In this document: in pieces, positions 5,933 to 50,124 of the stretch | Numbering within the stretch: position 1 is the stretch's first letter | Layout of the letters: every line of letters starts with the position of its first letter | NCBI GenBank assembly: GCA_013203625.1 | Contig: JABMPX010000005.1 | Coordinates: 2,305-66,304, forward strand | DNA: 64,000 nt | Direction of reading: 5' to 3' | Source: Parcubacteria group bacterium | GTDB taxonomy: Bacteria > Patescibacteriota > Minisyncoccia > Portnoybacterales > UBA2143 | Notes under the pieces: generated by a model | Told to the model about the DNA's origin: nothing | The model's database searches: none | Seen by the model: only the letters and a program-made list of their open reading frames with translations | Translations under genes and position numbers: made by a program

Positions 5933-5936
5933 AATA

Positions 5937-7172: not shown

Positions 7173-7173
7173 T

Positions 7174-8895: not shown

Positions 8896-8906
8896 TATAA
8901 AATAAA

Positions 8907-22517: not shown

Positions 22518-22524
22518 TTGCGTC

Positions 22525-22554: not shown

Positions 22555-22583
22555 GTAGTTGCCTGAGATAAGGCAATTTTTTT

Positions 22584-23285
22584 ATGACTTTTAAACAAAT
22601 AAATAAAATAATTTATCAAAAAAAATGGCTCGTATTCTGGATAACTGTCCTAGGAGCTGTTTTAGCTTTTGACTTAATGGTTATTCAAACTCCAGAGTAT
22701 AAAGCCAGTTCAAAAGTATTAGTTATTCAGAAACAAATAGCTGGGCAGGATATTTACAGTATTTCCAAATCAGCCCAATATCTTTCCAATGTTTTAAAAG
22801 AAGGAATTTATTCTGATAGTTTTTTTGAAAAAGTTGTTCAATCATCTGAACAAATAAAGGAAAGTGATTTCCCTTCTCAATTAAAAGAAAGACGCAAGCA
22901 ATGGGAAGAGGATGTTAAAGTGAATATTATTCGTGATTTAGGAGTTATAGAAATTAGTGTTGTTCATCCAGAAAAAGAAAAAGCCGAACAAATTAATTGG
23001 ACAGTGACTAATGTTTTAGGAGAAAATCATAGATTTTATCATGGCAGCGGACAGAATGTAGAATTGAAAATCTTAAACAAACCATTAGTTGGCGAGAAAC
23101 CAATTAGTACTAATTTATGGCTTGGAACAATTTTAGGCGCTTTAATTGGATTTTGCGCTGGTGTTGGATTAGCTATAAAAAGAACGTTAAAATCTATTAA
23201 ATTGCCCTATGATCCTAAAAATGACCAAGGTTTATTATTAGCTGATAAATCCTCCTCTTTGGATAGAAATGATTTTTCTATCTAA
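22584..23285 (+). CDS. polysaccharide chain-length determinant (Wzz/CpsC-like) protein
   Basis: N-terminal TM (WLVFWITVLGAVLAF), periplasmic-type middle region, C-terminal TM (GTILGALIGFCAGVGLAIKR). Confidence 0.5.
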   Translation: MTFKQINKIIYQKKWLVFWITVLGAVLAFDLMVIQTPEYKASSKVLVIQKQIAGQDIYSISKSAQYLSNVLKEGIYSDSFFEKVVQSSEQIKESDFPSQLKERRKQWEEDVKVNIIRDLGVIEISVVHPEKEKAEQINWTVTNVLGENHRFYHGSGQNVELKILNKPLVGEKPISTNLWLGTILGALIGFCAGVGLAIKRTLKSIKLPYDPKNDQGLLLADKSSSLDRNDFSI

Positions 23286-23311
23286 AAAGGAGGTTTTTAA
23301 GGAGAAGTTCC

Positions 23312-23340
23312 TTGAAAACTTAATATAAAGAATGTAAATT
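23312..23340 (+). promoter_or_regulatory. putative promoter TTGAAA-N17-TAAATT for the exported-protein operon
   Basis: TTGAAA 23312-23317, TAAATT 23335-23340, followed by a ~75-nt leader and a GGGAGGT RBS. Confidence 0.3.
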
Positions 23341-23417
23341 AGACGATAAACAGGTGAGGAAAGCCGAAGTAATAGGACAGAAGCTGACTAACCCTAAAAA
23401 AATGGGAGGTAAAGAGA

Positions 23418-24134
23418 ATGAAAAAGATAATTGTGGTAGCAATGGTGGCATTGGTATTGGGATTTAGTTTATCAACTTTTGCGGCTGAACCTAATTGGAA
23501 GCATCATATTGTTAAAAAAGGCGATACCCTTTCGGGTTTTGCTTATTCTTGTAGGGTTTCTATTGCGAAAATGATTGAATGGAACCCTAAAACAGGAATA
23601 AATCTTATTTATCCGGGCCAAAAACTTAGGTATTTGGTACCACCGGATATAATAGATGTTATTGGCCGAATCAATGAGGTGATTGGGACAATGGATACTA
23701 TTGTGCCTATAATTCAGCAAAGCGATAGTGAAATCAAGAAAATTATCAGGGAAAATCATGACGGTCTTACCCGGCAAATTGGCCAGGTTCAAGCCAAGCA
23801 GAAACAGAATACTGATATTACTGATATCAAAGATACAAGGATTATGGATCTTGCAATTCTTGCGATCTCTTTGTTTGTTGTAGTTTGTATTGTGTGGTTT
23901 CTTATTTTCCGGTTTAGAAAAGAAGGAAATAATGTAAAAATTTGCCCTGATGATCTTGATAAGATTTATAAGATTACCAATGGTGAAATTTCTGGCCCAG
24001 AAAATTATAAGTGTTGTTTTTGCAACAAGATGATCCAGAAACACAATCTTGCTCGTCATGTAACAAAGAGATGTAAAAAGTCACCGTATTACGAACAAAA
24101 AATCAATAAGGAGGAGGTATCAACAAATGAGTAG
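23418..24134 (+). CDS. exported LysM-domain protein with one TM and a cytoplasmic Cys/His-rich tail
   Basis: Signal peptide MKKIIVVAMVALVLGFSLSTFAAEP; LysM (HIVKKGDTLSGFAY...IYPGQKLRY); TM LAILAISLFVVVCIVWFLIF; tail CPDD...KCCFCNKMIQKHNLARHVTKRC. Confidence 0.6.
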   Translation: MKKIIVVAMVALVLGFSLSTFAAEPNWKHHIVKKGDTLSGFAYSCRVSIAKMIEWNPKTGINLIYPGQKLRYLVPPDIIDVIGRINEVIGTMDTIVPIIQQSDSEIKKIIRENHDGLTRQIGQVQAKQKQNTDITDIKDTRIMDLAILAISLFVVVCIVWFLIFRFRKEGNNVKICPDDLDKIYKITNGEISGPENYKCCFCNKMIQKHNLARHVTKRCKKSPYYEQKINKEEVSTNE

Positions 24135-24987
24135 ACTAACAAAGACCGGTTTATTGCTGATAATGGTGGTTTTGTTGTTGACGCTTTTTAGTGCTTGCGC
24201 CAGACGGAATCTTATTATGTCTGAGAAACACATTAATAAAATTCCTGAAGTTGGCCAGGGCTATAGCGTACTTTGGTGTAATTTTCATCCAATTCTTTTG
24301 ATGTCAGAAGGAATTGGCATTAATCATGCTCTTCATTTTTTTGGAAAGGATGAACCGTACATTGCAGTGAAGGTGCGTGAGAATAAACAAAATTTTCAGA
24401 TGATGGTAATCGTGACCGAGGAAGTCAATTTTGCCGAAGATAGAGCGATGATTCCTTCCCGAAGTGGTGAACGTTTTTATTCTGTTGATGGGAAAGATGT
24501 TTTCAGTGAAAATGGCTATTTAGTCCCTAAGTTTGCGTGGACAAAGATAAAGCCATTAGCTGATACTGGGATTGAGATTTGGCAAAATGTTTTACCTGGT
24601 TCTGAAAGAGATCAAAAAGTAAAAAAGATTTTAGCAGGAATAGGCAAGGGCCTTGATCAAGAAATCCCTGGATTATTTGATCGAGTGATGTCTCAAGTTG
24701 CGAAGATTACAACTGAAGATATTGTATTAGCAGGAGCAACAGATTTTACCAGTTTGTTTGGTCTTTTTGGTATCCGGATTTGGGCAGTTGTTAATGCAAT
24801 TGTCCAGAAGGCCGATTTGTCTTTGCCATTTTACGATACGGCAGTAGTTAATAGATTTCAGTTGGCTACTGCTCTTGAGCCATTTAACTCTTTAACCAAA
24901 GAGCAAGAAAGGGCTATTAATAAATGGTTAAAAGCTCTTGAAGGGTGGCAGAAGAGAGTAGATGCTTATGATGCGCAAATTCAATAA
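24127..24987 (+). CDS. hypothetical lipoprotein
   Basis: N-terminal signal with lipobox-like LFSAC. Overlaps the upstream gene by 8 nt. No known catalytic motif. Confidence 0.5.
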   Translation: MSRLTKTGLLLIMVVLLLTLFSACARRNLIMSEKHINKIPEVGQGYSVLWCNFHPILLMSEGIGINHALHFFGKDEPYIAVKVRENKQNFQMMVIVTEEVNFAEDRAMIPSRSGERFYSVDGKDVFSENGYLVPKFAWTKIKPLADTGIEIWQNVLPGSERDQKVKKILAGIGKGLDQEIPGLFDRVMSQVAKITTEDIVLAGATDFTSLFGLFGIRIWAVVNAIVQKADLSLPFYDTAVVNRFQLATALEPFNSLTKEQERAINKWLKALEGWQKRVDAYDAQIQ

Positions 24988-25058
24988 CTAACCAAAAATT
25001 ACCGTAGAAATAAGTAAACTTTATTAAAGTCAAAACCGACTTTAGAGATAACGCTGAA

Positions 25059-25087
25059 GCCCTTAAAAACTTAAAGCTTTTAAGGGC
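25059..25087 (+). promoter_or_regulatory. 10-bp stem hairpin in the 210-nt intra-operon spacer
   Basis: GCCCTTAAAA-acttaaagc-TTTTAAGGGC, flanked by direct ACGCTGAA copies. No U-tract. Confidence 0.3.
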
Positions 25088-25197
25088 CGACGCTGAATCC
25101 AGACGAGGTAAGACAGAAATAGAGTTTCAATTTTTTATTTCAAGGTAGTTTATGGCATGTAACTCCAAAAAATTTATAGAAAGGAGGCAAGAAAGAT

Positions 25198-26829
25198 ATG
25201 AGAATGAAAAGGTTGTTGTTCATGCTGTTAATGATGTTTTTTGCCAGTGTAAACCTTGCCTCTACTAGTCAAGCAGGCAAGATTTATACAGTAGTGGAAC
25301 CCAAAATAACCATAAAGAAGTATAAAGTAGTTGACAAAGATACATTGTCGCAAATATGTTCTCGTTTTTACGGGAATGGCAGGTCGTCTGCTTATAATGC
25401 TTTAGCGGCTTGGGGAAATCAAGTAACACATGAAAAACTTTGGGTTTTTGTAGGACAGATTTTAGAGATTCCCTTTCCTCTGATTTTAAACCAGAACGAA
25501 GCTGGTATTAATCCGACAATTCTGCCAATTGAAGAAACAACCAAATTGACAATTAAACAATTAAAACAAAGTTTAACCCAAACTGATATCCAGGCAACTA
25601 TTCCTAATAATCTTTCAAAATCAATTATTTCTGGCTTAAAAACTTCTCAGAAATTTCATAATTTAAACAATGAAATTGTAGCAGCTGTTAGCTTTGGCAA
25701 AAAAGCGCAGGGCTGGACCATGATTAACGTTAAAAAAGAGTTAATTGGGAAATCCACATCTTCAACTATTAATAAAAATTTTGAGATTAGAGCCACTTTG
25801 CCCGATTGCAATAACCTATATTTACAGTTAATTCGGGTTTCTGAGAAAAAGCTTAATGCCAAAAGGATGCTATTACGACTTCCACCCCCACCTCCATTTC
25901 CGCCAATTTTAAAAGCCGAAATTCAAAAGGTCTTACTTGCTGAATATGCAAAAATTATAGCTAAATATGGTTGGGATTGGGATTCCACAGGGGGTTATTT
26001 CAAAGAGCGTTATACGGACGGAAACAATGTCAAAGGTTGGTGGCAGTCAAGCGTTCTTTATCCTTTTGTCTCCAATGACATTGAGGGCAATGAATGGTCA
26101 TTTGGTCTGGCTTATACTATTAGAGATTGGTCTGGGGAAACCGGTGAAGTAAACCCGTTCTATTATAATGGCATAGTGAATATTGAGTCATTGGCTGGAC
26201 GCTTTCGGGATAGCGACCGAAATTGGGAAATTCTTGGCCGAGTTGGACTTGGTCAACGCGAAGATAGTGGCTATTTAACTAATGAGTGGGGTCGTTTTGA
26301 CACGGAGCAAGAAACAAACATTTTTAATGCTTATTCTTCTGCTGAATACAGCGAAAATAAGACGTGGTTTTCCAAAATACGTGTTTCTGGCGAAGTAGAA
26401 ATAGGGCTCAATGAAGAGAAAGAAAGCTATTGGACTGACCAATGGGATGGTCGACAAAAGTTGGATAATCAACCTGATGATAAAGATAGATATGAATTTG
26501 CTCTATACTCTGATGTTTTTACTTTTGACGAAGACAAGAATATTCAGATTTGGAGCGAATTTCGAAGCACTTACTATAATGAAGAATATAAATGGGGGAA
26601 CGGAATAAAAGGTGGTTTATCATTCTTAAATGGTTCTTTGAAAGTAGGTCTTGGCTATACAGCATGGAACCAGAGCAATGCAGATTCTACTGGTTTTTAT
26701 GGAGAGGTGAATCTGTATAATCTTTACCATTGTGCTTTCGGCTATCCAAAAAGATATTCTGATGAAGATATTTTTGTTCCAATTAACCAGAAGGAAAAAG
26801 AGGAAGAGATTTTAGAAATGTTAATGTAA
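25198..26829 (+). CDS. secreted protein: N-terminal LysM-like domain, poly-proline linker, C-terminal beta-barrel-like domain
   Basis: Signal peptide ending ASTSQA; YKVVDKDTLSQICSRFYG...VGQILEIP (LysM-like); LRLPPPPPFPP; C-terminal ~300 aa Gly/aromatic-rich with alternating hydrophobics. GGAGG RBS. Confidence 0.55.
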   Translation: MRMKRLLFMLLMMFFASVNLASTSQAGKIYTVVEPKITIKKYKVVDKDTLSQICSRFYGNGRSSAYNALAAWGNQVTHEKLWVFVGQILEIPFPLILNQNEAGINPTILPIEETTKLTIKQLKQSLTQTDIQATIPNNLSKSIISGLKTSQKFHNLNNEIVAAVSFGKKAQGWTMINVKKELIGKSTSSTINKNFEIRATLPDCNNLYLQLIRVSEKKLNAKRMLLRLPPPPPFPPILKAEIQKVLLAEYAKIIAKYGWDWDSTGGYFKERYTDGNNVKGWWQSSVLYPFVSNDIEGNEWSFGLAYTIRDWSGETGEVNPFYYNGIVNIESLAGRFRDSDRNWEILGRVGLGQREDSGYLTNEWGRFDTEQETNIFNAYSSAEYSENKTWFSKIRVSGEVEIGLNEEKESYWTDQWDGRQKLDNQPDDKDRYEFALYSDVFTFDEDKNIQIWSEFRSTYYNEEYKWGNGIKGGLSFLNGSLKVGLGYTAWNQSNADSTGFYGEVNLYNLYHCAFGYPKRYSDEDIFVPINQKEKEEEILEMLM

Positions 26830-26851
26830 TACCAAAACAGGAGGCATCAAA

Positions 26852-27514
26852 ATGAAAAGGTTATTTAAATTAATTGCAATGATTGCAACCGCATTTTTTT
26901 TGATTAGTGGATGCGCAGCTATTCAAAAAAAGGGTACAACAAAAAACTGGGAAAAGGAAGTAAAGGAGATAATGAACACTGGTGTAACCGAGGCAGATCC
27001 TAATGTTTTGGCCAAAGATAGTAAATCTGTGATCACGGTTGAGGACATAGGTGACAGGGTTTATTATACGATTACTAATCCGTGGTTAACCCCCAAAGGG
27101 GATACCAAAGGCAAGAATTTAAAGCGGGCCGTTAAACTGAAAATCGCCTCGGGGATTCTGGATGCAAAAGGGAAAAACCCATATTTTACCATGGTAGAAG
27201 TCAAAGATAACAAGGCCGAATTTAGTCTTCCGAATTTTGCCCGGGCCAAGGGTGTAAAAGTTCCTGTGGTTGAACATGGCTGGGGATATGGCCAAGCAGC
27301 TGACGGAACTGTTGGTTATTTGGTTCTTGACCCCAATAGCCCATGGGTTGTATATAAGACAAAAGCTTTTGGAGGGCATCTGACAGAGTCAAGGGACAGA
27401 GCTGATCTGGAAACATTGGCCATAGGGTCAGTTATGTATCCAGGTAAACCAACCGCGCCATTAAAGGCGATTGGAAAAGGCAAGTTGAAACAGGGTATGC
27501 ACCCTGAATTATAA
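26852..27514 (+). CDS. hypothetical lipoprotein
   Basis: Signal plus lipobox FLISGC, GGAGG RBS. No known catalytic motif. Confidence 0.55.
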   Translation: MKRLFKLIAMIATAFFLISGCAAIQKKGTTKNWEKEVKEIMNTGVTEADPNVLAKDSKSVITVEDIGDRVYYTITNPWLTPKGDTKGKNLKRAVKLKIASGILDAKGKNPYFTMVEVKDNKAEFSLPNFARAKGVKVPVVEHGWGYGQAADGTVGYLVLDPNSPWVVYKTKAFGGHLTESRDRADLETLAIGSVMYPGKPTAPLKAIGKGKLKQGMHPEL

Positions 27515-27519
27515 AAAAA

Positions 27520-27578
27520 GCCGGAAAAACCGGCAAGCAATAACCCCATACGTTAAGGAGGAAACGAATGGGGTTTTT
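27520..27578. terminator. pair of convergent rho-independent terminators
   Basis: GCCGG-aaaaa-CCGGC with an A7 run upstream (a T7 run for the minus-strand gene). CCCCAT...ATGGGG followed by TTTTT for the plus operon. Confidence 0.55.
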
Positions 27579-28803
27579 AATTTTTAATCTTTATCCAACC
27601 GGCCAATAAAATCCAGAAGTTCCATTGAAGCGCGGTAGTTCGCAAAATATTATCAAAAAAACTAGCTATGAATAAACTTAGGCAAATTACTAAAATGCCC
27701 AGACCCAAAACCTTTTCTTGATTAATACTTTTTCTAAAGATTTTGAAAAGTTTTAATAACAAAGCAACAATTAACCAAAAATAAGCTATTAATCCTAAAA
27801 TACCGTTTTCCACAAATATTTTTAAATAATCATTATGAGCATCTAAACTGCCCCAGTTAAACCCGCGGTAAAATTCAGCTAAATTAGTAAAAGTGTCTAG
27901 CCCATAACCAAACCAGGGCTGCCACAAAGATACAGGCAGAATGTCTTGCCAAAGCCGGAACCGCCAGACCATTGACCCATAAGGATCTAAAGTAATTAAT
28001 TCCCATAATCGCTGTTGAAAAATATCAGAAAAGAAATAAATAATTAAAAAGAAAAATAGACCGGCTAAAAGTAATTTTCTGTATTTTAAAATGCCGAAAA
28101 ACAGAATAAAAATAAAAAGACAGGCCAAAGCGCTACGGCTGTAAGTGGCAAAGAGTAAAAGAACTAAAAAAGCAGCAGCTATCCAAATATGAAAATTAAA
28201 ATTTTTCCATGAGACAATATCATCCTTTTTTGTTTCTGACAAAGACAGTAATAAAGAAAGAACTATGCCTAAAATAAAAAAAGTGTAAAAAGCAAAAAGA
28301 CTGGGACATGAAAAAGTGCCGTAAATTCTGTTAAATCCGCCAAAATCATCAGGTAAGCCAAAACCGCCAATTAACTGAACAAAAGCAAAGATGCCAGGTA
28401 AAATATAGCTAATTAGAATAATTTTTAATAAAAGGAGCCAATCTTTTCTGTTTTCTATAAGCTTGTAGGCCAAGAAATAAAGGAAGAAGATGCTGGTTAG
28501 TCGGATGAATTCTCTAATACTACCCAAAGCGTCTATTGAATAAAAAATGCTAATTAATGATAACCCCAAAAAGCAAAGGATAGGATAAAAAAGCGGAATT
28601 GATTTAATTGATTTGAAATTTTTAAAAATAAAAATCAGACAAACTAAAAAGACCAGTCCGCCAATAATAATATTAAGATTTAAATAAGGCAAACTAGAAT
28701 GAATCCTGAATTCTTTTTGGCTAAGGAGATCTAAAGAAGGTCTTAGCAAGACCAAAGCAAGAATAAAATAAAAGAAGTTTTTCTTATCTTTTGCCATTGA
28801 CAT
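27577..28803 (-). CDS. O-antigen ligase/polymerase-like (Wzy_C family) membrane protein
   Basis: About 10-12 TMs with the conserved YSRSALACLF segment. Confidence 0.45.
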   Translation of the reverse strand: MSMAKDKKNFFYFILALVLLRPSLDLLSQKEFRIHSSLPYLNLNIIIGGLVFLVCLIFIFKNFKSIKSIPLFYPILCFLGLSLISIFYSIDALGSIREFIRLTSIFFLYFLAYKLIENRKDWLLLLKIILISYILPGIFAFVQLIGGFGLPDDFGGFNRIYGTFSCPSLFAFYTFFILGIVLSLLLSLSETKKDDIVSWKNFNFHIWIAAAFLVLLLFATYSRSALACLFIFILFFGILKYRKLLLAGLFFFLIIYFFSDIFQQRLWELITLDPYGSMVWRFRLWQDILPVSLWQPWFGYGLDTFTNLAEFYRGFNWGSLDAHNDYLKIFVENGILGLIAYFWLIVALLLKLFKIFRKSINQEKVLGLGILVICLSLFIASFFDNILRTTALQWNFWILLAGWIKIKN

Positions 28804-39077: not shown

Positions 39078-40004
39078 ATGCTAACTAAATTTTTAATAAC
39101 CATTTCTGTTATTTTCAATCCTTTGTCTTTTGTTGTTGGACATTTGTCCAATTCTGAAACTCCTATTGATTTTTCAGAAATTTCAACTGGAAATTATGCG
39201 TCAATTCTAGCAATATCTTCTCATACCAATCCTAATTTTCTGCCTATTCGTAATTGGAATATAGCTGAACCAGAATTTGAAACAAAAGCAGCTTTAATTT
39301 TTGACAAAGAAAAGAATAAATTTCTTTATCAAAAGAATATTGATTATGTTCTACCGATTGCCAGCTTAACCAAATTAATGACTGCTTTGATTACTTTAGA
39401 AAACATTGATATTAATGAAATAGTTATTGTTTCTAAACAAGCGATTGCTGGTTATGGGGACATAGGGGATCTTGCAGTCAAAGAAGAAATTTCTGTTGGA
39501 AATTTACTTCATGCCTTATTAATGGAATCAAGTAATGATGCGGCAATTGCATTGGCAGAAGCGGTTCAGCAAAACCAAAATAAGAATTTTATTAATTTAA
39601 TGAATCAAAAAGCTCAAGAGCTGGGCTTAAAAAATACTTTTTATACTGATCCCAGCGGATATGAACCAACTAATGTTTCTACTGCCGAAGAAATTGTAAA
39701 ATTAATTGAATATAGCTTTAGCCAGCCATTTATTTGGCAAGTTTTAAAAACGCTAAATATTAGCTTGTCTTCAGCTGACGGGCAAATTCATCATTATTGG
39801 GTTAATACTGACAAACTGTTAAATCGCATGCCAGGCGTTCTTGGTGGTAAGACCGGTTATACTGAAGAAGCTCAAGGCTGTTTATTTTTAGTAATTGAAC
39901 AAACGAATTCAGAATATTTAATTAGTGTTGTTTTAGGAGCCCAAGAAAAATTTTTAGAAACAGAAAGATTAATTAATTGGGTTAAAAAAGCATACATATG
40001 GTAA
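39078..40004 (+). CDS. D-alanyl-D-alanine carboxypeptidase (peptidase S11, PBP5-like)
   Basis: ASLTK (SxxK), SSND (SxN), KTGYT (KTG). N-terminal signal/anchor. Confidence 0.75.
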   Translation: MLTKFLITISVIFNPLSFVVGHLSNSETPIDFSEISTGNYASILAISSHTNPNFLPIRNWNIAEPEFETKAALIFDKEKNKFLYQKNIDYVLPIASLTKLMTALITLENIDINEIVIVSKQAIAGYGDIGDLAVKEEISVGNLLHALLMESSNDAAIALAEAVQQNQNKNFINLMNQKAQELGLKNTFYTDPSGYEPTNVSTAEEIVKLIEYSFSQPFIWQVLKTLNISLSSADGQIHHYWVNTDKLLNRMPGVLGGKTGYTEEAQGCLFLVIEQTNSEYLISVVLGAQEKFLETERLINWVKKAYIW

Positions 40005-40008
40005 AATT

Positions 40009-41067
40009 ATGCCTGATATTTTTTACATTTCACGTATTTTAGGTTTAGGCGCAATATCTTTCATTATTGCTTTAGCATGGACACCGATTTTAATTTATTT
40101 TCTTGATAAATATCGATTAGGCAAGCAAATCCGGTCTGAAGGAGCGCCTATTTTTAATAAATTTCACAAGAAAAAACAAGGAACGCCAACCATGGGTGGT
40201 ATTTTAATATGGGGAACTGTTCTTTTTTTAACTTTGCTTTTTTGGTGGTTAGCTCAAATAGGCGAGGGGACTATTTTAGAAAAGTTAAATTTTTTAACTC
40301 GCAAAGAAACTCTTTTGCCTTTAGGCGCGTTAATTGCTTCTGCTTTGGTTGGTTTTGGAGATGATTTGCTTGGAATTTTTAAAAAAAGCTCTAAAAGAGG
40401 CGCTAAAGGAGGCGGTTTGAAAGTACGGCACCGTCTTTTGATTTATACATTTATTGCTGGCTTTGGCGCTTGGTGGTTCTTTTGGAAATTAGAATGGGAT
40501 TTAGTACATGTTCCTTTTGTTGGTGATTTTAATGTTGGCTGGTGGTATATCCTTATTTTTATTTTTATTTTAGTAGCTACAGCTCATTCAACTAATCTAA
40601 CCGATGGATTAGATGGATTAGTTGGAGGTGTTCTTTTAATTGCTTTTGCTGCTTATGGGACAATTGCTTTTTCACAGGGGAAAATGGACTTAGCAGTTTT
40701 TTGCGGAGTGATTATTGGGGCGCTTTTAGCTTTTCTTTGGTTTAATATATATCCAGCTCGTTTTTTTATGGGTGATACTGGAGCAATGTCTTTAGGAATT
40801 ACATTAGGAATTATTGCGATGCTAACCAATGCGTTTTTGCTTCTTCCTTTTATCGGATTTGTTTTAGTTATGGAATCATGTTCAGTTATTGTCCAGCTTT
40901 GTTCAAAGAAAATCCGAAAGAAAAAAGTTTTTCTATCCACCCCGATTCATCATCATTTTGAAGCCAAGGGCTGGCCAGAAACAAAAATAACAATGCGTTT
41001 TTGGATTATTAACGGAGTCATGGCAGTAATTGGATTGATAATAGTTTTTATAGAAAAGATTGTGTAA
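40009..41067 (+). CDS. mraY: phospho-N-acetylmuramoyl-pentapeptide transferase MraY
   Basis: NLTDGLDGL signature and 10 TMs. Confidence 0.9.
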   Translation: MPDIFYISRILGLGAISFIIALAWTPILIYFLDKYRLGKQIRSEGAPIFNKFHKKKQGTPTMGGILIWGTVLFLTLLFWWLAQIGEGTILEKLNFLTRKETLLPLGALIASALVGFGDDLLGIFKKSSKRGAKGGGLKVRHRLLIYTFIAGFGAWWFFWKLEWDLVHVPFVGDFNVGWWYILIFIFILVATAHSTNLTDGLDGLVGGVLLIAFAAYGTIAFSQGKMDLAVFCGVIIGALLAFLWFNIYPARFFMGDTGAMSLGITLGIIAMLTNAFLLLPFIGFVLVMESCSVIVQLCSKKIRKKKVFLSTPIHHHFEAKGWPETKITMRFWIINGVMAVIGLIIVFIEKIV

Positions 41068-41070
41068 TTT

Positions 41071-42483
41071 ATGAAAATTAAAGATTTTAAAAATAAAAAA
41101 GTAACTATTATTGGATTAGGATTGCATGGCGGAGGAGTTGGTTCAGCTAAGTTTTTTAGCATGGCTGGAGCTAATGTATTAGTAACTGATTTGAGAAATA
41201 AAGAGGAATTAGCTGAATCAATAGAAAAACTTAAAAAAGAGCGTATTAAATATGTTTTAGGTCAGCATCGTCCAGAAGATTTTATTAATACTGATTTAGT
41301 TATTAAAAATCCAGCTGTTTCAGATAAATCAAAATATTTAGAAATAGCCAGAGAAAACAAAGTGCCTATTGAAACAGATATCGGCATATTTTTTGAACTT
41401 TGCCCAGCGCCAATTATTGGAATTACAGGGAGCAGAGGCAAATCAACAGTTAGTACTTTAACTGCCAGATTTCTTAAAAAGAAATATTCAGAAGTGATTT
41501 TAGCTGGTAATATCCGTTCTTCAGTTTTAGGAAAATTAAACAAAATTGATAAAAAGAGCATAGTTGTCTTAGAGCTTTCAAGTTGGCAGTTAGCTGGATT
41601 AAAATCACATAAAAAAAGCCCTTATTGCGCTTTAATTACCAATATAATTCCTGATCATCTTAACAAATACAAAGATATGGATCATTATATTAGAGATAAA
41701 AAGAAAATATTTAGATGGCAGAAATCCAAGGATTATTTAATTCTTAACCATGATGATGAAAGAGTAAAAGATTTTAAAGAAGAAGCTAAAGCGCAAATAC
41801 TATATTACAGCCAAGAGAACAAAGAAGAATCTGATTTTCAAGGAAGCTTTATTAAACAAGAGAAAATATATTTTAATTTTGAAGAAGTATGTTCTTTAAA
41901 TGAAATTAAATTAAAGGGAAGACACAACATCAGCAATGTCTTAGCTGCCATAACAATAGCTAAATTATATAATGTTTCTAATAAATCAATACAAAAAACT
42001 TTAAATAAATTTAATGGAATAGAAGGACGATTAGAATTAATTGATATTGTTAATGGAGTTAAATATATTAATGATACAACAGCAACTATTCCAGAGGCCT
42101 GTTTAGCAGCTTTGGATTCATTTTCTAATAAAAACATTGTTCTTATTGCTGGCGGAGCTGATAAAAAATTGGATTTTACTGAATTAGCTAAAGTAGTTAT
42201 TAAAAGAATTAAAGCAATAATACTTCTTAAAGGAAGCGCTACAGATAAACTTAAACAAGAAATTGAAAAAGAAATGAAATTAAATAATCAACAATTAGAA
42301 ATAATAGGGCCCTTAGACAATATGGAACAGGCTGTTATAGAAGCCACTGAACAAGCTAAAAAATTTGAGGAAAGTATTGTTTTACTTTCACCAGCTTGCG
42401 CCAGTTTTGGTCTTTTTAGACACGAATTTGAAAGAGGAAAATATTTTAATGAAGCTGTTGCTTTATTAAAAAACAAGCATTAA
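41071..42483 (+). CDS. murD: UDP-N-acetylmuramoylalanine--D-glutamate ligase MurD
   Basis: N-terminal Rossmann KVTIIGLGLHGGG and P-loop GITGSRGKSTV. Confidence 0.8.
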   Translation: MKIKDFKNKKVTIIGLGLHGGGVGSAKFFSMAGANVLVTDLRNKEELAESIEKLKKERIKYVLGQHRPEDFINTDLVIKNPAVSDKSKYLEIARENKVPIETDIGIFFELCPAPIIGITGSRGKSTVSTLTARFLKKKYSEVILAGNIRSSVLGKLNKIDKKSIVVLELSSWQLAGLKSHKKSPYCALITNIIPDHLNKYKDMDHYIRDKKKIFRWQKSKDYLILNHDDERVKDFKEEAKAQILYYSQENKEESDFQGSFIKQEKIYFNFEEVCSLNEIKLKGRHNISNVLAAITIAKLYNVSNKSIQKTLNKFNGIEGRLELIDIVNGVKYINDTTATIPEACLAALDSFSNKNIVLIAGGADKKLDFTELAKVVIKRIKAIILLKGSATDKLKQEIEKEMKLNNQQLEIIGPLDNMEQAVIEATEQAKKFEESIVLLSPACASFGLFRHEFERGKYFNEAVALLKNKH

Positions 42484-42493
42484 AAAATTAATT

Positions 42494-43582
42494 ATGAAAG
42501 CTCGTCAGCCTGATTATATTCTTGTTTTTACTGTATTCGCCCTGATTATTTTTGGGTTATTTATTCTTTCCAGCGCTTCATTAGTTATTTCCAATGAAAA
42601 ATTTGGGCAAAGCAATTATTTTTTAAAACATCAACTATTTTACAGCTTGCCCTTAGGATTGATTTGTTTTTTTCTTTTTCAAAAAATTAATTATAGATAT
42701 TGGAAAAAAATTATATTTCCCTTATTAATCGCATCGTTGATTTTATTAGCATTAGTTTTTGTACCTGGGATAGGCAATGATACGGGAGCTAAAAGATGGA
42801 TTTATTTAGGATTCTCTGTGCAGCCATTTGAAATTGTTAAATTGACCTTCATTCTTTATCTGGCTGCTTTGTTAAGTAAAAGAGAAAATGGAGACAAAAC
42901 GATTAAAGAGAGTTTAGTTCCTTTTTTAGTCGTTACTGGCATTATTAGCATATTAGTTCTTTCTCAGCCTAATATGAGCGCTTTTATGATAACTTTTTTA
43001 ATTGCCGGCCTCATTTATTTTCTAGCTGGAGCAAGATTATCATATTTAGCAGCTATTGCTGGGTTGGCTTTAGTCAGTTTTTTTGCTTTAATAAAGATGG
43101 CTCCTTATAGAATGAAACGATTAACTGTTTTTCTTCATCCTGAAATTGATCCGCAAGGCATAGGATACCAAATTGACCAAGCGCTTTTAGCTATTGGGTC
43201 AGGCGGACTTTTTGGATTAGGTCTTGGACATAGTATTCAAAAATGGAAATATCTTCCTGAACCAATCGGCGATTCTATTTTTGCTATTATGGCAGAAGAA
43301 TTAGGATTCATTGGAGCTGGAGTATTAGTTATCCTTTTTGTTATTTTGGCTTGGCGCGGTTTTAAGATTGCCAAAAATTCTTCTGATAGATTCGGTTATC
43401 TTTTGGCTGGGGGAATTACTGGTTGGTTGTTTTTTCAAGCGTTTATTAATATAACAGCTATTTCTGGATTAATTCCTTTGACTGGCATACCTTTGCCTTT
43501 TATTAGTTACGGGGGGACAGCTTTAATTATTTCATTGGCTGGAGCAGGAATATTAGTTAATGTATCTAAATATACTAAATAA
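42494..43582 (+). CDS. ftsW: SEDS-family peptidoglycan polymerase FtsW
   Basis: 10-TM SEDS topology with conserved PEPIGDSIFAIMAEELGFIG region. Confidence 0.8.
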   Translation: MKARQPDYILVFTVFALIIFGLFILSSASLVISNEKFGQSNYFLKHQLFYSLPLGLICFFLFQKINYRYWKKIIFPLLIASLILLALVFVPGIGNDTGAKRWIYLGFSVQPFEIVKLTFILYLAALLSKRENGDKTIKESLVPFLVVTGIISILVLSQPNMSAFMITFLIAGLIYFLAGARLSYLAAIAGLALVSFFALIKMAPYRMKRLTVFLHPEIDPQGIGYQIDQALLAIGSGGLFGLGLGHSIQKWKYLPEPIGDSIFAIMAEELGFIGAGVLVILFVILAWRGFKIAKNSSDRFGYLLAGGITGWLFFQAFINITAISGLIPLTGIPLPFISYGGTALIISLAGAGILVNVSKYTK

Positions 43583-43649
43583 ATTTTTAATTTTTAATTT
43601 TTAATTTTATAAATAAATCTTAAATCTTAATTTTTAAAAATTAAATTCT
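43583..43649. repeat. AT-only simple tandem repeats
   Basis: (TAATTTT)x4 followed by (AATCTTAA)x2 in the ftsW-murG spacer. Confidence 0.4.
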
Positions 43650-44768
43650 ATGAGAATTTTATTTACTGGTGGTGGCACAGGTGGACATATTTTTCCTATT
43701 GTTGCCATAGCCAGACAATTGAAGTCTATTTGCCCAAGTCAAGAAATTGACTTAGATATGTTTTTTTTAGGATCTAACGGCTTTACTAAAGAACTTTTAG
43801 AAAAAGAGGGAGTTAAGGTTAAGACCATTTTAGCTGGTAAATTCCGACGCTATTTTTCTATCTATAACATTTTTGATTTGTTTAAAATTCCTATTGGGCT
43901 TTTGCAATCTTTTTGGCATCTTTATATTTTGATGCCAGATATTGTTTTTAGCAAAGGGGGATATGGCAGCGTTCCTGTTATTATGGTGGCTTGGCTTTAT
44001 AGAATCCCTATTTTAACTCATGAATCAGATGTTCTCCCTGGATTAGCAAATCGTTTAGCGTCTAAATTATCAAAGAAAATTGCTATTTCTTTTGCTCCTA
44101 CTGAAAAATATTTTTCTCAGAAGAAAACTACTTTAATAGGCAATCCAATTCGTTTGGAAGTTATTGAAATTTGCCTTTCATCTAATCAAGAGAATAGAGA
44201 AAAGGCAAGAAATATGTTTAAAATAATCAGCCAAAAGCCAGTTATTTTTATTCTTGGCGGGAGCCAAGGAGCTCAAAAAATAAATGAGTTGGTTTTAGAA
44301 AGCTTGCCAAAGCTTTTGGAAAAATACGAGATTATTCATCAATGCGGTGTCAAGAATTATGAAAATATTTTGAAGAAGATAAGTAAGTTGCCGGTTAATT
44401 ATCATGTTTTTCCTTTTTTGGATGAGGAACAAATGTCTTTAGTTTATTTCTTGTCTGATTTAGTTGTTTCCAGAGCTGGAGCTGGGAGTATTTCTGAAAT
44501 TGCAGCTTGCGCCAAACCAAGTATTTTAATTCCTTTGCCGAAATCGGCTTCAGGGCATCAAAGAGAAAACGCTTTCAATTATGCTAAGGCAGGCGCAACT
44601 ATTGTTTTAGAACAGTTTAATTTGACTACAAATCTATTCTTAAATGAAATTGATAAAATTTTAGATAATCCTGAATTAGTTCAAAAAATGTCTGATAATG
44701 CCAAAGAGTTTTCTCGTCCAGAAGCAGCTCAAAGAATCGCCAAGGAAATAATCGACATGGGGAAATAA
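43650..44768 (+). CDS. murG: UDP-GlcNAc:undecaprenyl-PP-MurNAc-pentapeptide GlcNAc transferase MurG
   Basis: MRILFTGGGTGGHIFPIVAIARQL N-terminus. Confidence 0.85.
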   Translation: MRILFTGGGTGGHIFPIVAIARQLKSICPSQEIDLDMFFLGSNGFTKELLEKEGVKVKTILAGKFRRYFSIYNIFDLFKIPIGLLQSFWHLYILMPDIVFSKGGYGSVPVIMVAWLYRIPILTHESDVLPGLANRLASKLSKKIAISFAPTEKYFSQKKTTLIGNPIRLEVIEICLSSNQENREKARNMFKIISQKPVIFILGGSQGAQKINELVLESLPKLLEKYEIIHQCGVKNYENILKKISKLPVNYHVFPFLDEEQMSLVYFLSDLVVSRAGAGSISEIAACAKPSILIPLPKSASGHQRENAFNYAKAGATIVLEQFNLTTNLFLNEIDKILDNPELVQKMSDNAKEFSRPEAAQRIAKEIIDMGK

Positions 44769-44772: not shown

Positions 44773-46161
44773 ATGGCAGAAAAACAACAAATTAGAGTTA
44801 GATTTGCGCCTAGTCCAACCGGCTTATTCCATATTGGCACAGCCAGAACAGCGCTTTTCAATTATTTATTTGCTAAAAAGAATAAAGGCGAGTTTATTCT
44901 GCGCATAGAAGACACTGACTTGGAAAGGTCTGAAAAGAAATATGAAAAAGATATCATAGAGAATTTAGAATGGTTAGGATTAAAATGGGATGGGGAAATA
45001 TATTATCAAAGCAAACGCACAGAGATTTATGAAAAATATATTAAAAAACTTTTAGATTCAGGCCAGGCATTCTGGTGTGATCATACTAAAGAAGAATTAG
45101 AAAAAGAAAAAAAAGAACAAGTAGCTCTTAAACAAGCGCCGAAACATATTTGTAATCGCAGGAATAAAGCAAAACAAGGAATTATTAGATTCCATTGCCT
45201 GGATGAAAAAATTACCTTTAATGATTTAATCAAAGGAAAATTGGAATTTAATGGAGGATTGTTAGGGGACATAGGAATTGCAAAGAATGAGAAAACTCCT
45301 TTATATAATTTAAGCGTAGTGGTTGATGACGCTGAAATGAAAATTAGCCATGTGATTAGAGGAGAAGACCATATTTCTAATACTCCCAAACAGATTTTTC
45401 TTTATCAGGCCCTTGGTTTTGATTTACCTGAATTTGCTCATTTACCATTGATTTTAGGGTCAGACAAAAGCAAGTTGAGTAAGCGGCATGGGACTGTTTC
45501 GGTTAAAGAATACGGAAAACAAGGATACTTGCCAGAAGCTTTAATAAATTTTATGGTTTTTCTTGGATGGCATCCTGGCAATGAAGAAGAAATTTTTTCT
45601 TTGAAGGAGTTAGAACAAGAATTTTCATTAGAAAAAATAAATAAATCAAATGCGATTTTTAATATTGATAAGCTTAATTGGTATAATGGCCACTATATTA
45701 GAAAAATGGATTTAGATGAATTAACAAAGAAATGTTTGCCGTATTTAGAAAAAGAAACTGATTTTGAATACATTAAAAAAGTAGTTGCTTTAGAACAAGA
45801 ACGAATAAAAAAACTGTCTGAAATAGGGGAATTAACTAAATTCTTTTTTATTGATAAACTTAATTATGAGCCAGAATTGCTAATTTGGAAAAAAATGACT
45901 CTAAAAGAGGTTAAAAATAATTTAGAGATATTACAAGAGAAATTGTCAAAAACAGGAGATTTTAGCCAAAAATCACTTGCGCGAACATTGTCTGCTCTAA
46001 CTGAAAAACACGGCACTGGAGAGCTTTTATGGCCTCTGAGAGTGGCTTTATCAGGCCAAAAAGCCTCTCCTGGACCCTTTGAAATAATGGAAGTTTTAGG
46101 CAAAGAAAAGACCTTAAAAAGGATTAAAGAAGCGATTAATAATGAAATCAAAAATATATAA
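44773..46161 (+). CDS. gltX: glutamate--tRNA ligase
   Basis: RFAPSPTGLFHIGTARTALFN (HIGH) and KLSKR (KMSKS). Zn-type insert with C...C...C. Confidence 0.9.
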   Translation: MAEKQQIRVRFAPSPTGLFHIGTARTALFNYLFAKKNKGEFILRIEDTDLERSEKKYEKDIIENLEWLGLKWDGEIYYQSKRTEIYEKYIKKLLDSGQAFWCDHTKEELEKEKKEQVALKQAPKHICNRRNKAKQGIIRFHCLDEKITFNDLIKGKLEFNGGLLGDIGIAKNEKTPLYNLSVVVDDAEMKISHVIRGEDHISNTPKQIFLYQALGFDLPEFAHLPLILGSDKSKLSKRHGTVSVKEYGKQGYLPEALINFMVFLGWHPGNEEEIFSLKELEQEFSLEKINKSNAIFNIDKLNWYNGHYIRKMDLDELTKKCLPYLEKETDFEYIKKVVALEQERIKKLSEIGELTKFFFIDKLNYEPELLIWKKMTLKEVKNNLEILQEKLSKTGDFSQKSLARTLSALTEKHGTGELLWPLRVALSGQKASPGPFEIMEVLGKEKTLKRIKEAINNEIKNI

Positions 46162-47428
46162 AATTATTTTAACTGCGTTTTTAATTTTCCCCTTAATTAG
46201 CAATGGAGGATTGATTGATGATATTAATCAACAAATTGTAGAACAGGAAGTCAAACGCGCAGAATTAGAAAAACAGGCGCAGGAGTATCAAGAAGTAATT
46301 GATCAAAAACAAGGGGAGATAAGGAGTTTGAATAATCAAGTTGCTATTTTTAACGCTCGAATAAACAAATTGCAAGTAGAAATCAACATTACGGAAGATG
46401 ACATTGCTCAGACCAAATTAAGAATCCTTTCATTGGAATATGGCATAGAACAAGCAGAAGAAGATATTTTTGAACAAAAAGGCAATTTAGGCAAAATCAT
46501 ACAAGTTATTGCTGAATTTGATCAAACCAGTCAAGTAGAAATGATTTTAGCTAGTGAGGATTTTTCTGATTTTTTTAATCAATTAACTTATTTAGATAAT
46601 CTTCAAAATGGAGTTAAGGAAAAAGTTGATAATCTTAAATTTTTAAAGCAGACATTAAGTCAAGATAAGGAAAGTAAAGAAGAAAAGAAAGAACATTTAG
46701 AAGAACTTAAACAACAATTAGATAGCCAGAAATGGTCTTTAGCAGGACAAAGAAACTCAAAAGAAGATCTTTTAAAATATACTAGCGGAGAAGAAAGCGA
46801 GTATCAACAATTGCTGGCTAATATTGAAGCGCAAAAAAGGTCTTTATTAGGAGATATTAATCGTTTACGCCAGCAAAAAGCAGTTGAATTAGCTCGTTTA
46901 AAAGAATTACAGGAAAAACCTCCTTCAGAATACTGGGCTTCGCTTAATTGGTATTATCGCCAAGATGATTCTCGCTGGGCCAAAACAACTATTGGCATTA
47001 GCAATTCAGAATTAGGAGATTATGGCTGCGCTATTACTTCAGTAGCCATGATTTTAAAATATTATGGCGTTAGCATTACGCCTAAACAATTAGCCAAAGA
47101 ATCCATTTTTTCTTGGGATTTAATTTATTGGCCAAGAAAATGGGGGAGTGTTCAATGCATGAATTGTCCGCCGCCACATGTTTCTTCTTTTGACTGGTTT
47201 CGCTTAGATCGCGAATTGGGAGCTGGCTATCCAGTAATAGTTTTTGTTAAAGCAGTAGGGCGTGGAGCAGGACATTATATTATAATTCATCATAAAACAA
47301 AGGATGGCCGTTATGTTGTTCATGATCCGCTTTTTGGCGCTAATATTTATTTAGAATCAACCCAGGTTTATATCTCAAACCTGTATGAAACTACAACTAT
47401 TTTAGATCAAATGATTATATATCACTAA
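46142..47428 (+). CDS. secreted coiled-coil protein with C-terminal peptidase C39-like (papain-fold) domain; putative murein hydrolase
   Basis: Signal/TM, ~230-aa heptad-rich region, then GDYGCAITSVAMILKYYG (Cys) and GHYIIIHHKTKDGRYVVHDP (His), typical of the C39_2 family. Confidence 0.5.
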   Translation: MKSKIYKIILTAFLIFPLISNGGLIDDINQQIVEQEVKRAELEKQAQEYQEVIDQKQGEIRSLNNQVAIFNARINKLQVEINITEDDIAQTKLRILSLEYGIEQAEEDIFEQKGNLGKIIQVIAEFDQTSQVEMILASEDFSDFFNQLTYLDNLQNGVKEKVDNLKFLKQTLSQDKESKEEKKEHLEELKQQLDSQKWSLAGQRNSKEDLLKYTSGEESEYQQLLANIEAQKRSLLGDINRLRQQKAVELARLKELQEKPPSEYWASLNWYYRQDDSRWAKTTIGISNSELGDYGCAITSVAMILKYYGVSITPKQLAKESIFSWDLIYWPRKWGSVQCMNCPPPHVSSFDWFRLDRELGAGYPVIVFVKAVGRGAGHYIIIHHKTKDGRYVVHDPLFGANIYLESTQVYISNLYETTTILDQMIIYH

Positions 47429-47440: not shown

Positions 47441-47896
47441 ATGCGTTATATTATAATCTTACTAACAATTTTATTACTGCCGTATTTTGTCTCAGCTGAA
47501 GGAATAAAGATGTCTGATTTAGAAATTCCAGACTTATTAAATTGGTTAGACAATGCTTATGACAAAACTAATCAAAAAATTCTTAATCCAGTAAAGCAAT
47601 TTATTGATACATCTATTGATTTGATAAAAAAAGAGAATATAAAGGGAAAAAGCGAAGAGCTTTTAGATAAAACTGAAAAAGCAATTGAACAAAAACAAGA
47701 AGAATTAGTTGACCAAGCGCAAGAAAAAGTTAAACAAGAAGTTAAAAAAGGCGCTAAAAATTGGCTAAAGAGGAGATTAGAATCAGTTGAACAGACCCTG
47801 GCTCCCCTAAAAAATAAAATTCAGAAGGGGAGAGGCCTATTAAGAGAACAAGTTTATAAACTTAAAAATTATTTAAATAATTGGTTAAAAGGATAA
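47441..47896 (+). CDS. hypothetical secreted coiled-coil protein
   Basis: Signal peptide ending YFVSAEG, charged helical rest. Confidence 0.4.
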   Translation: MRYIIILLTILLLPYFVSAEGIKMSDLEIPDLLNWLDNAYDKTNQKILNPVKQFIDTSIDLIKKENIKGKSEELLDKTEKAIEQKQEELVDQAQEKVKQEVKKGAKNWLKRRLESVEQTLAPLKNKIQKGRGLLREQVYKLKNYLNNWLKG

Positions 47897-47948: not shown

Positions 47949-47977
47949 TTGACAGCATTAGAGCTGCTTATTATAAT
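47949..47977 (+). promoter_or_regulatory. perfect consensus sigma70 promoter TTGACA-N17-TATAAT
   Basis: TTGACA 47949-47954, TATAAT 47972-47977, upstream of the recombinase gene. Confidence 0.5.
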
Positions 47978-48029: not shown

Positions 48030-48974
48030 ATGGACAAAAGCCAAAAACCACTTCCTCAACATTTAACTGACTTTTTGGACTGGTTAGATATTGAAAAAGG
48101 TTTATCTAATAAATCCCAGGAAAACTATTCTCGCTTTCTCAAAAAATTTATTGATTGGTTAGAAGATAATAACCTAAGTAGTTTAAAACCACATGAACTC
48201 TCCCCTGCTCATATTTGGGAATATAGAGTGTACTTGTCTCGTCATTCTAAAAAACCCTTAAAAAAAACAACACAGAACTATTACTTGATTGCTTTAAGGT
48301 CTTTTTTGAATTATTTCGCTAATAGGGATATAATTTCTCTGCCGGCTGAAAAAATTAAATTATCTAAGAGTAAAGATGACAAAAAGGTCCACTTTTTGGA
48401 TTTAGAACAGATAGAAAAATTACTTTCTGCGCCTGATATAAAAAAAATAAATGGCTTGAGGGATAGAACTATCTTAGAGGTTTTATTCTCAACTGGATTA
48501 AGAATTGCCGAATTAGTTTCTCTTAATCGAGATCAGATTAGAATTACTTCCTTAACCAAAGATTTAGAAATTGGCATTGTTGGCAAAGGTAATTATAATA
48601 GAACTATCTATTTTTCAGAAAGAACGATTTACTGGCTTAAGAAATATCTTGATTCTAGGAAAGATAATGATAAAGCTCTTTTTATTAATTACCAAGGAAG
48701 AAAAAATGCTCCTAGGCGTTTAACTGACCGTTCTATTGAAAGAAACATTAAAAAATATTCCTTATTAGCTGGCTTATCAGGAAATACTACTCCACATACT
48801 CTTCGCCATTCTTTTGCTACAGATTTATTATCTAAAGGCGTTGATTTGCGCCTAATCCAAGAGTTTTTAGGACATAGGAATATTGCTACTACCCAGATTT
48901 ATACTCATGTAACTAATAAGCGCTTGAAAGATGTTCATCGTGAATTCCACGGTAATAAAAAATTAGAAGAATAA
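48030..48974 (+). CDS. tyrosine site-specific recombinase (XerC/XerD/phage-integrase family)
   Basis: Catalytic box RHSFATDLLSKGVDLRLIQEFLGHRNIATTQIYTHV (R...HxxR...Y) and N-terminal SAM-like domain. Confidence 0.85.
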   Translation: MDKSQKPLPQHLTDFLDWLDIEKGLSNKSQENYSRFLKKFIDWLEDNNLSSLKPHELSPAHIWEYRVYLSRHSKKPLKKTTQNYYLIALRSFLNYFANRDIISLPAEKIKLSKSKDDKKVHFLDLEQIEKLLSAPDIKKINGLRDRTILEVLFSTGLRIAELVSLNRDQIRITSLTKDLEIGIVGKGNYNRTIYFSERTIYWLKKYLDSRKDNDKALFINYQGRKNAPRRLTDRSIERNIKKYSLLAGLSGNTTPHTLRHSFATDLLSKGVDLRLIQEFLGHRNIATTQIYTHVTNKRLKDVHREFHGNKKLEE

Positions 48975-48978
48975 ATTT

Positions 48979-50124
48979 ATGCGTATTTCTTATTCCGGGT
49001 TAGAAGCATTTTCTAATTGTCCGGCTAGATATAAATTTCAATATATTGAACGAATAAAAGCTCCTAAATCTAAGGAAGTAATTTTTGGCACTTTGGTTCA
49101 TGATTGTTTAAAGATGTTCCACGAACCAAGCCAGTCAACTCCTGTTTCTGAAGAAGATTTACTTAAATATTTTACTGAAAAATGGAATAGTGATATTTAT
49201 CAAGATAAACAAGAAGAAGCTTTTGCTTTTCATCAAGGAATTGAAATATTAAAAAAATATTATTTGCAAAACCAAGGAATTGATTTTAATATTGTTAATC
49301 TAGAAATACCTTTTGAAGTGCCTATTTTAGAAGAAGAACTTCATCAAATCACTGGCCGTATTGATCGCATTGATAAATTAGAAGACGGCACTTTTGAAAT
49401 AATTGATTATAAAACAAGCAAGAAGATGCCTTCGCAAGAAGATATTAATAGAAATTTCCAGCTTTCAATTTATTATTTAGGAGTAATTAATCGCTGGCCG
49501 TCTTTACAAAAGCAGAACAGACCAATCAAATTATCTCTTCATTATTTAAGACACAATGAAAAGCTTTCTACTATTCAAACTAATAAAAAAATTAAAGAAA
49601 CAAAACAAAAGATTTTATCTATAATAGATGAAATTAAAAAAAGCTCTTTTGAGCCAAAAATGAATCCTCTTTGCGACTGGTGCCAGTATCAGCCATATTG
49701 TCCTTTATTTAAGCATAAATTTATTAAGGAACAATCCCCTGCTCTTGATGAACAAGAAATCAAAGATGTAATTAAAGAATATTTTGAAATAAAAAGCGAA
49801 CAAGGAGCAGAAACAAAACGATTATCTGAATTAAAAGAAATCATTAATCAATATTGCGATAAAAATAAAATAGACAGAGTTTTTGGCGATAATGGATATA
49901 TTACTCGCCTTTCACAACAGAGATTTGCCTATAATTTTAATAAAGTCAAAGAAATTCTTGAACCAATTAATAAATGGGATCAGATTTTAACCATTGATAA
50001 AGTCAAATTTAAAAAAGTTGTTGATTCCCTGCCTTATGATTTAAAAAAACAAATTGATGAAGCTAAAACACTAGAACGAGAGTTTAAAGTAATGACAATG
50101 AAAGCAAATAAGCGCGAAAAATAA
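48979..50124 (+). CDS. PD-(D/E)XK nuclease with Cas4/AddB-type 4-Cys cluster
   Basis: N-terminal Cys (SNCPARYKF), GRIDRID...EIIDYKTSKK (D..ExK core), C-terminal CDWCQYQPYC (CxxCx5C). Confidence 0.6.
   Translation: MRISYSGLEAFSNCPARYKFQYIERIKAPKSKEVIFGTLVHDCLKMFHEPSQSTPVSEEDLLKYFTEKWNSDIYQDKQEEAFAFHQGIEILKKYYLQNQGIDFNIVNLEIPFEVPILEEELHQITGRIDRIDKLEDGTFEIIDYKTSKKMPSQEDINRNFQLSIYYLGVINRWPSLQKQNRPIKLSLHYLRHNEKLSTIQTNKKIKETKQKILSIIDEIKKSSFEPKMNPLCDWCQYQPYCPLFKHKFIKEQSPALDEQEIKDVIKEYFEIKSEQGAETKRLSELKEIINQYCDKNKIDRVFGDNGYITRLSQQRFAYNFNKVKEILEPINKWDQILTIDKVKFKKVVDSLPYDLKKQIDEAKTLEREFKVMTMKANKREK

Follow-up and report, generated by a model that had tools for sequence, protein, structure and literature searches.

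Among the steps of bacterial division, hydrolysis of the cell wall under the control of FtsEX is both central and well studied. The proteins through which FtsEX acts combine a coiled coil with a C-terminal head: PcsB of Streptococcus pneumoniae (PDB 4CGK), which FtsEX activates, carries a CHAP domain; RipC of Mycobacterium and Corynebacterium and CwlO of Bacillus subtilis carry an NlpC/P60 domain and are enzymes that FtsEX activates directly, as in monoderm-type envelopes (PMC11627006); and EnvC of Escherichia coli and Vibrio, the middle member of an FtsEX-EnvC-amidase system, ends in a degenerate LytM/M23 domain. A 2024 review of FtsEX partners gives three head domains only, namely LytM/M23, CHAP and NlpC/P60 (PMC11627006). 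Here we describe a gene of an ultrasmall, uncultivated Parcubacteria group bacterium (assembly GCA_013203625.1, contig JABMPX010000005.1, positions 2,305 to 66,304; this 64,000-nucleotide, or 64-kb, stretch is hereafter the window, and positions are counted within it) whose product joins a coiled-coil arm of the PcsB/EnvC type to a C39-like cysteine peptidase head, and which probably encodes a wall hydrolase of the PcsB/CwlO/RipC kind.

The open reading frame (ORF; 46142..47428, forward strand) starts with ATG, encodes 428 amino acids and shares its first 20 nucleotides with the 3′ end of the glutamyl-tRNA synthetase gene gltX (44773..46161), so that the overlap of its start with the gltX stop, noted in an initial annotation made from the letters of the window, is confirmed. 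That annotation had read the product as a secretion signal followed by a coiled coil of ~230 residues and a C39-like C-terminal domain, a layout borne out by the ORF itself, the helices of an AlphaFold2 model, heptad occupancy and a match to Pfam Peptidase_C39_2. By visual inspection, the N-terminal sequence MKSKIYKIILTAFLIFPLISNGG resembles an export signal or membrane anchor in its arrangement of charged and hydrophobic residues; a lipobox Cys is absent from residues 1-23, the predicted local distance difference test score (pLDDT) of the model falls below 50 at residues 16-22, and an equivalent hydrophobic N-terminus is present in all homologues. In the full-length model (51-sequence alignment; mean pLDDT 79), residues 2-255 form long helices (2-127, 131-137, 141-214 and 217-255) that are followed by an alpha/beta domain; within residues 24-255, hydrophobic side chains occupy 0.70 of the heptad a/d positions, compared with 0.555 +/- 0.027 in 200 shuffled sequences. 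Homologues recovered at E <= 1e-3 (n=206) are nearly all 420-450 amino acids long and keep this layout unchanged, the close ones carrying Portnoybacteria or Patescibacteria labels. A scan of GTDB genomes, seeded with alignment A1 because the broader alignment A3 was too divergent to serve as seed, found relatives in 97 species genomes with Portnoybacteria, Paceibacterota, Moranbacteria and Parcubacteria labels. Members of the family bear the automatic database names 'C39 family peptidase' and 'CwlO-like', or 'peptidoglycan hydrolase CwlO-like protein' at JGI.

A hidden Markov model (HMM) built solely from the coiled coil of the protein's own clade was run against 80 metagenomic ftsX loci, 58 of which contain at least 450 nt of sequence downstream of ftsX. 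In every one of these 58 Patescibacteria loci it matched the gene directly after ftsX, over near full length and with E values from 1e-11 to 7e-30, and at E <= 10 none of the remaining ORFs (70 amino acids or longer) of the ftsX loci or the window was matched; the small coiled-coil ORF that lies directly 3′ of the gene (47441-47896) is thus among those not matched. A generic compositional bias, considered as a source of the similarity, is made less likely by this lack of other matches to the clade-only HMM. As judged from sequence, then, the arm has specific homology to the protein whose gene directly follows ftsX in Patescibacteria. The C39-like head itself occurs in 13 of the 58 post-ftsX genes, and all ten of the others that were sampled encode Peptidase_M23 together with CC_PcsB; because the same slot carries the coiled coil with either M23 or C39-like domain, the ftsX-partner position of Patescibacteria holds one coiled-coil arm with two alternative heads. 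In a sister subfamily (P0204, P0180, P0225 and P0249), the genes run ftsE, ftsX, coiled coil + C39 at four loci (L009, L011, L012 and L013) out of five that were informative, with the last gene abutting or overlapping ftsX in three loci and starting 64 nt 3′ of it in L012. P0204 is 29% identical to the window protein over 383 residues (E 1e-36), and the FtsX proteins of these four loci resemble Amesbacteria/Microgenomates FtsX.

Two side observations concern the ftsX loci. In the operons with coiled coil + C39, a gene for a conserved small membrane protein of 154-193 amino acids lies between a release-factor gene and ftsE (L009, 7970-8449; L011, 7545-8126; L012, 3905-4432; L013, 600-1064); the mutual identity of these proteins in their aligned C-terminal parts is 39-60%, and no Pfam family is assigned to them. 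In the M23 partners encoded after ftsX (L097, L104, L108, L118, L121, L124, L130, L139, L151 and L162), the halves of the Pfam M23 profile occur in swapped order, profile positions 55-96 matching near residues 220-290 and positions 2-53 near residues 340-415, which suggests that the M23 domain of these FtsX partners may be split or circularly permuted.

The initial annotation had likened the build of the protein to that of FtsEX-controlled PcsB and EnvC, and the comparison holds: to the arm homology with post-ftsX proteins are added CC_PcsB matches in orthologues and structural matches to EnvC and PcsB. Pfam CC_PcsB (PF24568) is matched by 21 of 51 family members (best E 1.2e-8), and two orthologues exceed its cut-off of 27 bits (P0112, residues 110-183, 31.4 bits; P0096, residues 121-192, 27.2 bits). 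The equivalent stretch of the window protein, residues ~96-169, is presumed to be the tip that contacts FtsX, by analogy with RipC and EnvC (PMC11627006). The alignment of a family profile with EnvC (8hd0_E) is collinear and pairs positions 36-246 with 36-245 (E 4.2e-4); the profile also weakly finds further EnvC entries and Cg1735 (8AUD), among unrelated coiled coils. When the full-length model is searched with Foldseek, EnvC in the Vibrio FtsEX complex (8tzl_E) ranks first (9e-5), followed by PcsB (4cgk, 2.8e-4), EnvC (6tpi), the N-domain of RipA and Cg1735; EnvC thus supplies the best matches of the arm, and in Patescibacteria an EnvC-like coiled coil fused to M23 uses the same post-ftsX slot as the coiled coil fused to C39. 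With PcsB, whose structure is among the top structural matches, the protein shares a signal peptide, a multi-helix coiled coil of ~230 residues, a short linker and a similar-sized C-terminal Cys/His papain-like hydrolase with its catalytic Cys near residue 292-296; it differs in having Peptidase_C39_2 instead of CHAP as its head, in its origin from a Patescibacterium and in the position of its gene after gltX. It also shares the modular logic of CwlO and RipC, but its head is C39_2 rather than NlpC/P60 and it is without a long proline-rich linker; no SweC/SweD-type cofactor was identified for it.

The head matches Pfam Peptidase_C39_2 (PF13529) with 44.1 bits (cut-off 24, E 4.1e-11), as do 51 of 51 family members, and Pfam Peptidase_C39 (PF03412) with 28.1 bits (cut-off 22), although the best stretch of the latter match covers residues 294-320 only; the Pfam scan gave no CHAP, NlpC/P60 or M23 match. 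Modelled alone (residues 255-428), it reaches a pLDDT of 91.9 and a predicted template modelling score (pTM) of 0.89, and adopts a confident papain-like fold. The C39-like papain fold proposed for the C-terminal domain in the initial annotation is upheld by this model and by an invariant Gln/Cys/His/Asp set, and the Cys and His motifs quoted there are indeed present, with Cys296 in LGDYGCAITSVAMILKYYG and His378 in GAGHYIIIHHK. In an alignment of 43 sequences that extends down to 22% identity, the sole invariant columns are Q274, G295, C296, H378, D395 and P396. Cys296 opens a helix of the modelled head, His378 lies within a strand and Asp395 at the end of the following strand, a predicted placement that is canonical for papain and C39 enzymes. 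Because Gln274, Cys296, His378 and Asp395 are invariant to such low identity, the protein is probably an enzyme and not an activator like EnvC, and this pattern, in which Gly295 and Pro396 are the only other invariant residues, points to selection on catalysis.

In relation to solved structures, the model makes the fold class of the head clear, with no solved structure close to it. Its PDB matches are all papain-like cysteine peptidases: CdiA-CT (8ssm), 9l5u, SpeB, AvrRpt2 (C70), interpain and PCAT1 (C39). Members of Peptidase_C39_2 such as Bacillus anthracis 3ERV, with which the Cys motif aligns, and the N5 domain of mycobacteriophage LysA share the Pfam match, but have no PcsB/EnvC-type coiled coil fused to them and no link to ftsEX. 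The papain-like CHAP domain and NlpC/P60 are members of one superfamily. The head is therefore not a new fold, because CHAP and NlpC/P60 are papain-like too, and represents a different family within the papain-like fold class, new in a known role; the 'different catalytic fold' by which the initial annotation had set the protein apart from PcsB and EnvC has to be given up, since CHAP is described as a papain-amidase fold (PMC11627006). With a profile of the head, 3,583 cluster representatives are recovered at E <= 1e-3, the best of them mostly ~400-450 amino acids long with the domain at the C-terminus, and a search with the C-terminal domain alone in a database of 5.8 billion proteins returned only seven fragments, all of the same family. 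As a separate observation, giant proteins of 3,700-5,500 amino acids (P0163, P0174, P0182, P0192, P0221 and P0268) contain a relative of the head domain in 3-4 copies.

On this evidence we consider it probable, well short of certain, that the gene encodes an exported, active wall hydrolase like PcsB, CwlO and RipC, with an arm docked on FtsX and a C39-like head that cuts peptidoglycan peptides. The N-terminal signal would direct the protein through Sec and across the membrane; by analogy with RipC and PcsB (PMC11627006), the coiled coil would act as a regulatory arm docked to FtsX through the extracellular domain of the latter, and ATP turnover by FtsE would free the catalytic head at the division site, autoinhibition by the arm being presumed until then. 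The triad of Cys296, His378 and Asp395, assisted by Gln274 in the oxyanion hole, would then cut the peptide part of septal peptidoglycan and so allow the daughter cells to separate. Peptidoglycan as the substrate and the coupling to FtsEX in this particular genome are what we infer, and the weakest parts of the combined scheme are indeed its FtsEX step in this genome and its substrate.

Several results weigh against such an FtsX-docked wall hydrolase. The window protein itself gives no CC_PcsB match at E <= 1 in the Pfam scan, scores 19 bits with NCBIfam EnvC (NF008644; cut-off 270), over the coiled coil only, and reaches 8.7 bits with NCBIfam PcsB (cut-off 450); Smc and other coiled coils are mixed into its structural and PDB-sequence matches; every PDB match of the head is weak (best E 3e-3, template modelling score <= 0.53); at a pTM of 0.46, the full-length model does not fix the placement of head on arm; and no biochemical demonstration of peptidoglycan cleavage was found for any member of the C39-like clade. 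In addition, the conserved neighbour of the subfamily is gltX, not a division cluster or ftsEX. tblastn searches with four Patescibacteria FtsE and FtsX proteins detected neither gene in the window nor within +/-6 kb of the subfamily gene at 80 loci from GTDB species genomes (of the 97 genomes found), and a six-frame search of the window for Walker A and LSGG motifs found no ABC (ATP-binding cassette) ATPase. The tie to ftsE and ftsX implied by the initial annotation is accordingly met with in the ftsE-ftsX operons of the sister subfamily and not in the window. In the literature, ftsE/ftsX are reported for ABY1, Saccharimonadia, Absconditicoccaceae and 'most' Patescibacteria bins; a search on FtsX in Parcubacteria/Paceibacteria yielded no report specific to the clade of the window protein. 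The position after murG and gltX, at the end of a division cluster, had also been offered as support for a division role; it was dropped as functional evidence and is weak as such, because adjacency to murG is confined to relatives with 57% identity or more, whereas that to gltX extends down to 32%.

The alternative that gains most from this setting is a wall hydrolase independent of FtsEX, on the pattern of RipA in Corynebacteriales, in which the coiled coil would have no role beyond autoinhibition, oligomerisation or spacing, and departure of the gene from the ftsEX operon would have cost the gltX-linked subfamily its tie to FtsX. A coiled-coil hydrolase controlled independently of FtsEX is documented in RipA (PMC9897464). 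This explanation draws on the total lack of ftsE/ftsX within +/-6 kb at the 80 subfamily loci (L015-L094), on the presence of gltX directly upstream and on the same strand in 66 of them (down to 32% identity), and on the RipA N-domain among the structural matches; set against it is the arm of the subfamily, which is still collinear with the arms encoded in ftsX operons, specifically so (E down to 7e-30) and with the tip region included. Separation from ftsEX, moreover, does not imply independence from it, because cwlO and pcsB of Firmicutes are not known to be adjacent to ftsEX either. We therefore regard an FtsEX-independent enzyme as rather unlikely.

A second alternative concerns the substrate of the head, and would make the protein a secreted protease acting on proteins or peptides, as classical C39 enzymes do on double-glycine leaders and SpeB/LapG-type enzymes on surface proteins, with the coiled coil as a surface tether. 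The best PDB matches of the head (CdiA-CT, 9l5u, SpeB, AvrRpt2 and PCAT1) do act on proteins, and the Pfam families C39 and C39_2 are both named for peptidases. On the same coiled coil, however, the head swaps with M23 in ftsEX operons; a relative, P0265, combines LysM with a domain of the head type; and the viral proteins that match most closely are wall-degrading ones of virions or lysins, the best structural matches being a tape-measure protein (1.2e-5) and a phage protein annotated as lysozyme (3.1e-4), followed by a wall hydrolase of the phi29 gp13 type (5.9e-4) and a phage C39 protein. C39-like domains are also listed among the predicted catalytic domains of phage lysins (PMC8223927; PMC3314691). 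A classical C39 bacteriocin-processing peptidase (PF03412) was rejected in particular, given the N-terminal export signal and the lack of an ABC exporter fused to the protein, adjacent to it or elsewhere in the window; unlike the bacteriocin-processing domains, the head is extracytoplasmic. A dedicated protease is hence improbable.

It is very improbable that the protein is instead an offensive enzyme with which an episymbiont breaches the wall of its host: Patescibacteria are often episymbionts, and several copies of the domain occur in giant proteins of 2,600-5,500 amino acids that are possible surface or attack proteins, but the gene is single and conserved, its synteny is deep, its neighbours are housekeeping genes (gltX and, in close relatives, murG), and its arm is homologous to a division-linked partner of ftsX. 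A non-catalytic activator that would use a degenerate head to switch on a separate amidase is barely conceivable, for all that the arm has EnvC, itself a non-catalytic activator of M23 fold, among its closest matches, as the protein has an intact cysteine-peptidase catalytic set whose members, with Gly295 and Pro396, are the sole invariants.

Features of the window discussed in the text, with positions counted from its first nucleotide
Feature	Position	Strand	Basis
Gene for coiled coil + C39-like peptidase	46142..47428	+	ORF list; 428 amino acids + stop
N-terminal export signal or membrane anchor, residues 1-23, MKSKIYKIILTAFLIFPLISNGG	46142..46210	+	Sequence inspection
Coiled-coil domain with PcsB/EnvC-type homology, residues 24-255	46211..46906	+	AlphaFold2 helices, heptad occupancy, profile and HMM matches
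Stretch equivalent to Pfam CC_PcsB, residues ~96-169 (end of helix 1, break 128-140, start of helix 2)	46427..46648	+	Orthologue matches mapped via alignment A1
C39-like (Peptidase_C39_2) papain-fold catalytic domain, residues 265-428	46934..47425	+	Pfam, domain model, PDB matches
Codon of Gln274, presumed oxyanion-hole residue	46961..46963	+	Invariant across the 43-sequence alignment (to 22% identity); role from papain/C39 enzymes
Codon of Cys296, presumed nucleophile	47027..47029	+	Invariant; first residue of helix; aligns with Cys of 3ERV
Codon of His378, presumed general base	47273..47275	+	Invariant; in beta-strand
Codon of Asp395, presumed third triad member, 17 residues after His	47324..47326	+	Invariant with Pro396; ends next strand
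gltX, glutamyl-tRNA synthetase, conserved upstream neighbour	44773..46161	+	20-nt overlap with the gene
Downstream ORF, 151 amino acids, small secreted coiled-coil protein, same transcription unit	47441..47896	+	Directly 3′ in close relatives, 33-61% identity
First cell-wall/division block: mraZ-like, rsmH-like, ftsL-like, PBP (penicillin-binding protein), murF	5489-10193		
Second cell-wall/division block: S11 carboxypeptidase, mraY, murD, ftsW, murG	39078-44768		

The organism makes peptidoglycan, and the genes for this in the window (G+C content about 0.32) include murF, mraY, murD, ftsW, murG, those of penicillin-binding proteins and that of an S11 carboxypeptidase. The two blocks of cell-wall and division genes are separated by about 29 kb, and no ftsQ, ftsA or ftsZ follows murG. 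From mraY through the small ORF at 47441-47896 the genes are tightly packed on a single strand; the product of that ORF, for which no family scored above threshold among the Pfam and NCBIfam profiles, could be an accessory factor. A perfect sigma-70 consensus (TTGACA-17 nt-TATAAT, 12/12; 47949-47977, forward strand) lies upstream of a XerC/D-like recombinase gene (48030-48974), and this promoter-like site marks where the long transcription unit carrying the gene described here comes to an end. Genes for a XerC/D-like recombinase and a PD-(D/E)XK nuclease, found at 48030-50124 of the window, recur shortly 3′ of homologues of the gene in L001, L007 and L010. Elsewhere in the window, the region ~22500-27600, with a G+C content of 0.36-0.39 against ~0.32, may be an island; several of its products are secreted or lipoprotein-like, and some of these have LysM-like motifs.

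In summary, the C39-like head is a probable fourth module of FtsEX partners, not yet described in that role although its fold class is already known; a literature search pairing FtsX with a C39-like hydrolase found no paper. Roughly a hundred species genomes of the subfamily conserve the module, and its domain has homologues in thousands of protein clusters, which shows the coiled-coil arm to be a portable adaptor. A bolder extension, possible but on the unlikely side, would see in the C39-like head an unrecognised class of FtsEX-driven effectors that, throughout Patescibacteria, swaps with M23 on one coiled-coil arm after ftsX, the Parcubacteria-type gene having moved behind gltX and become fixed there, where it is maybe the main separation enzyme and possibly works free of FtsEX or ties wall cleavage to the expression of a translation gene. 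The protein described here is a concrete candidate for a cell-separation enzyme of a huge and barely cultivable bacterial radiation.

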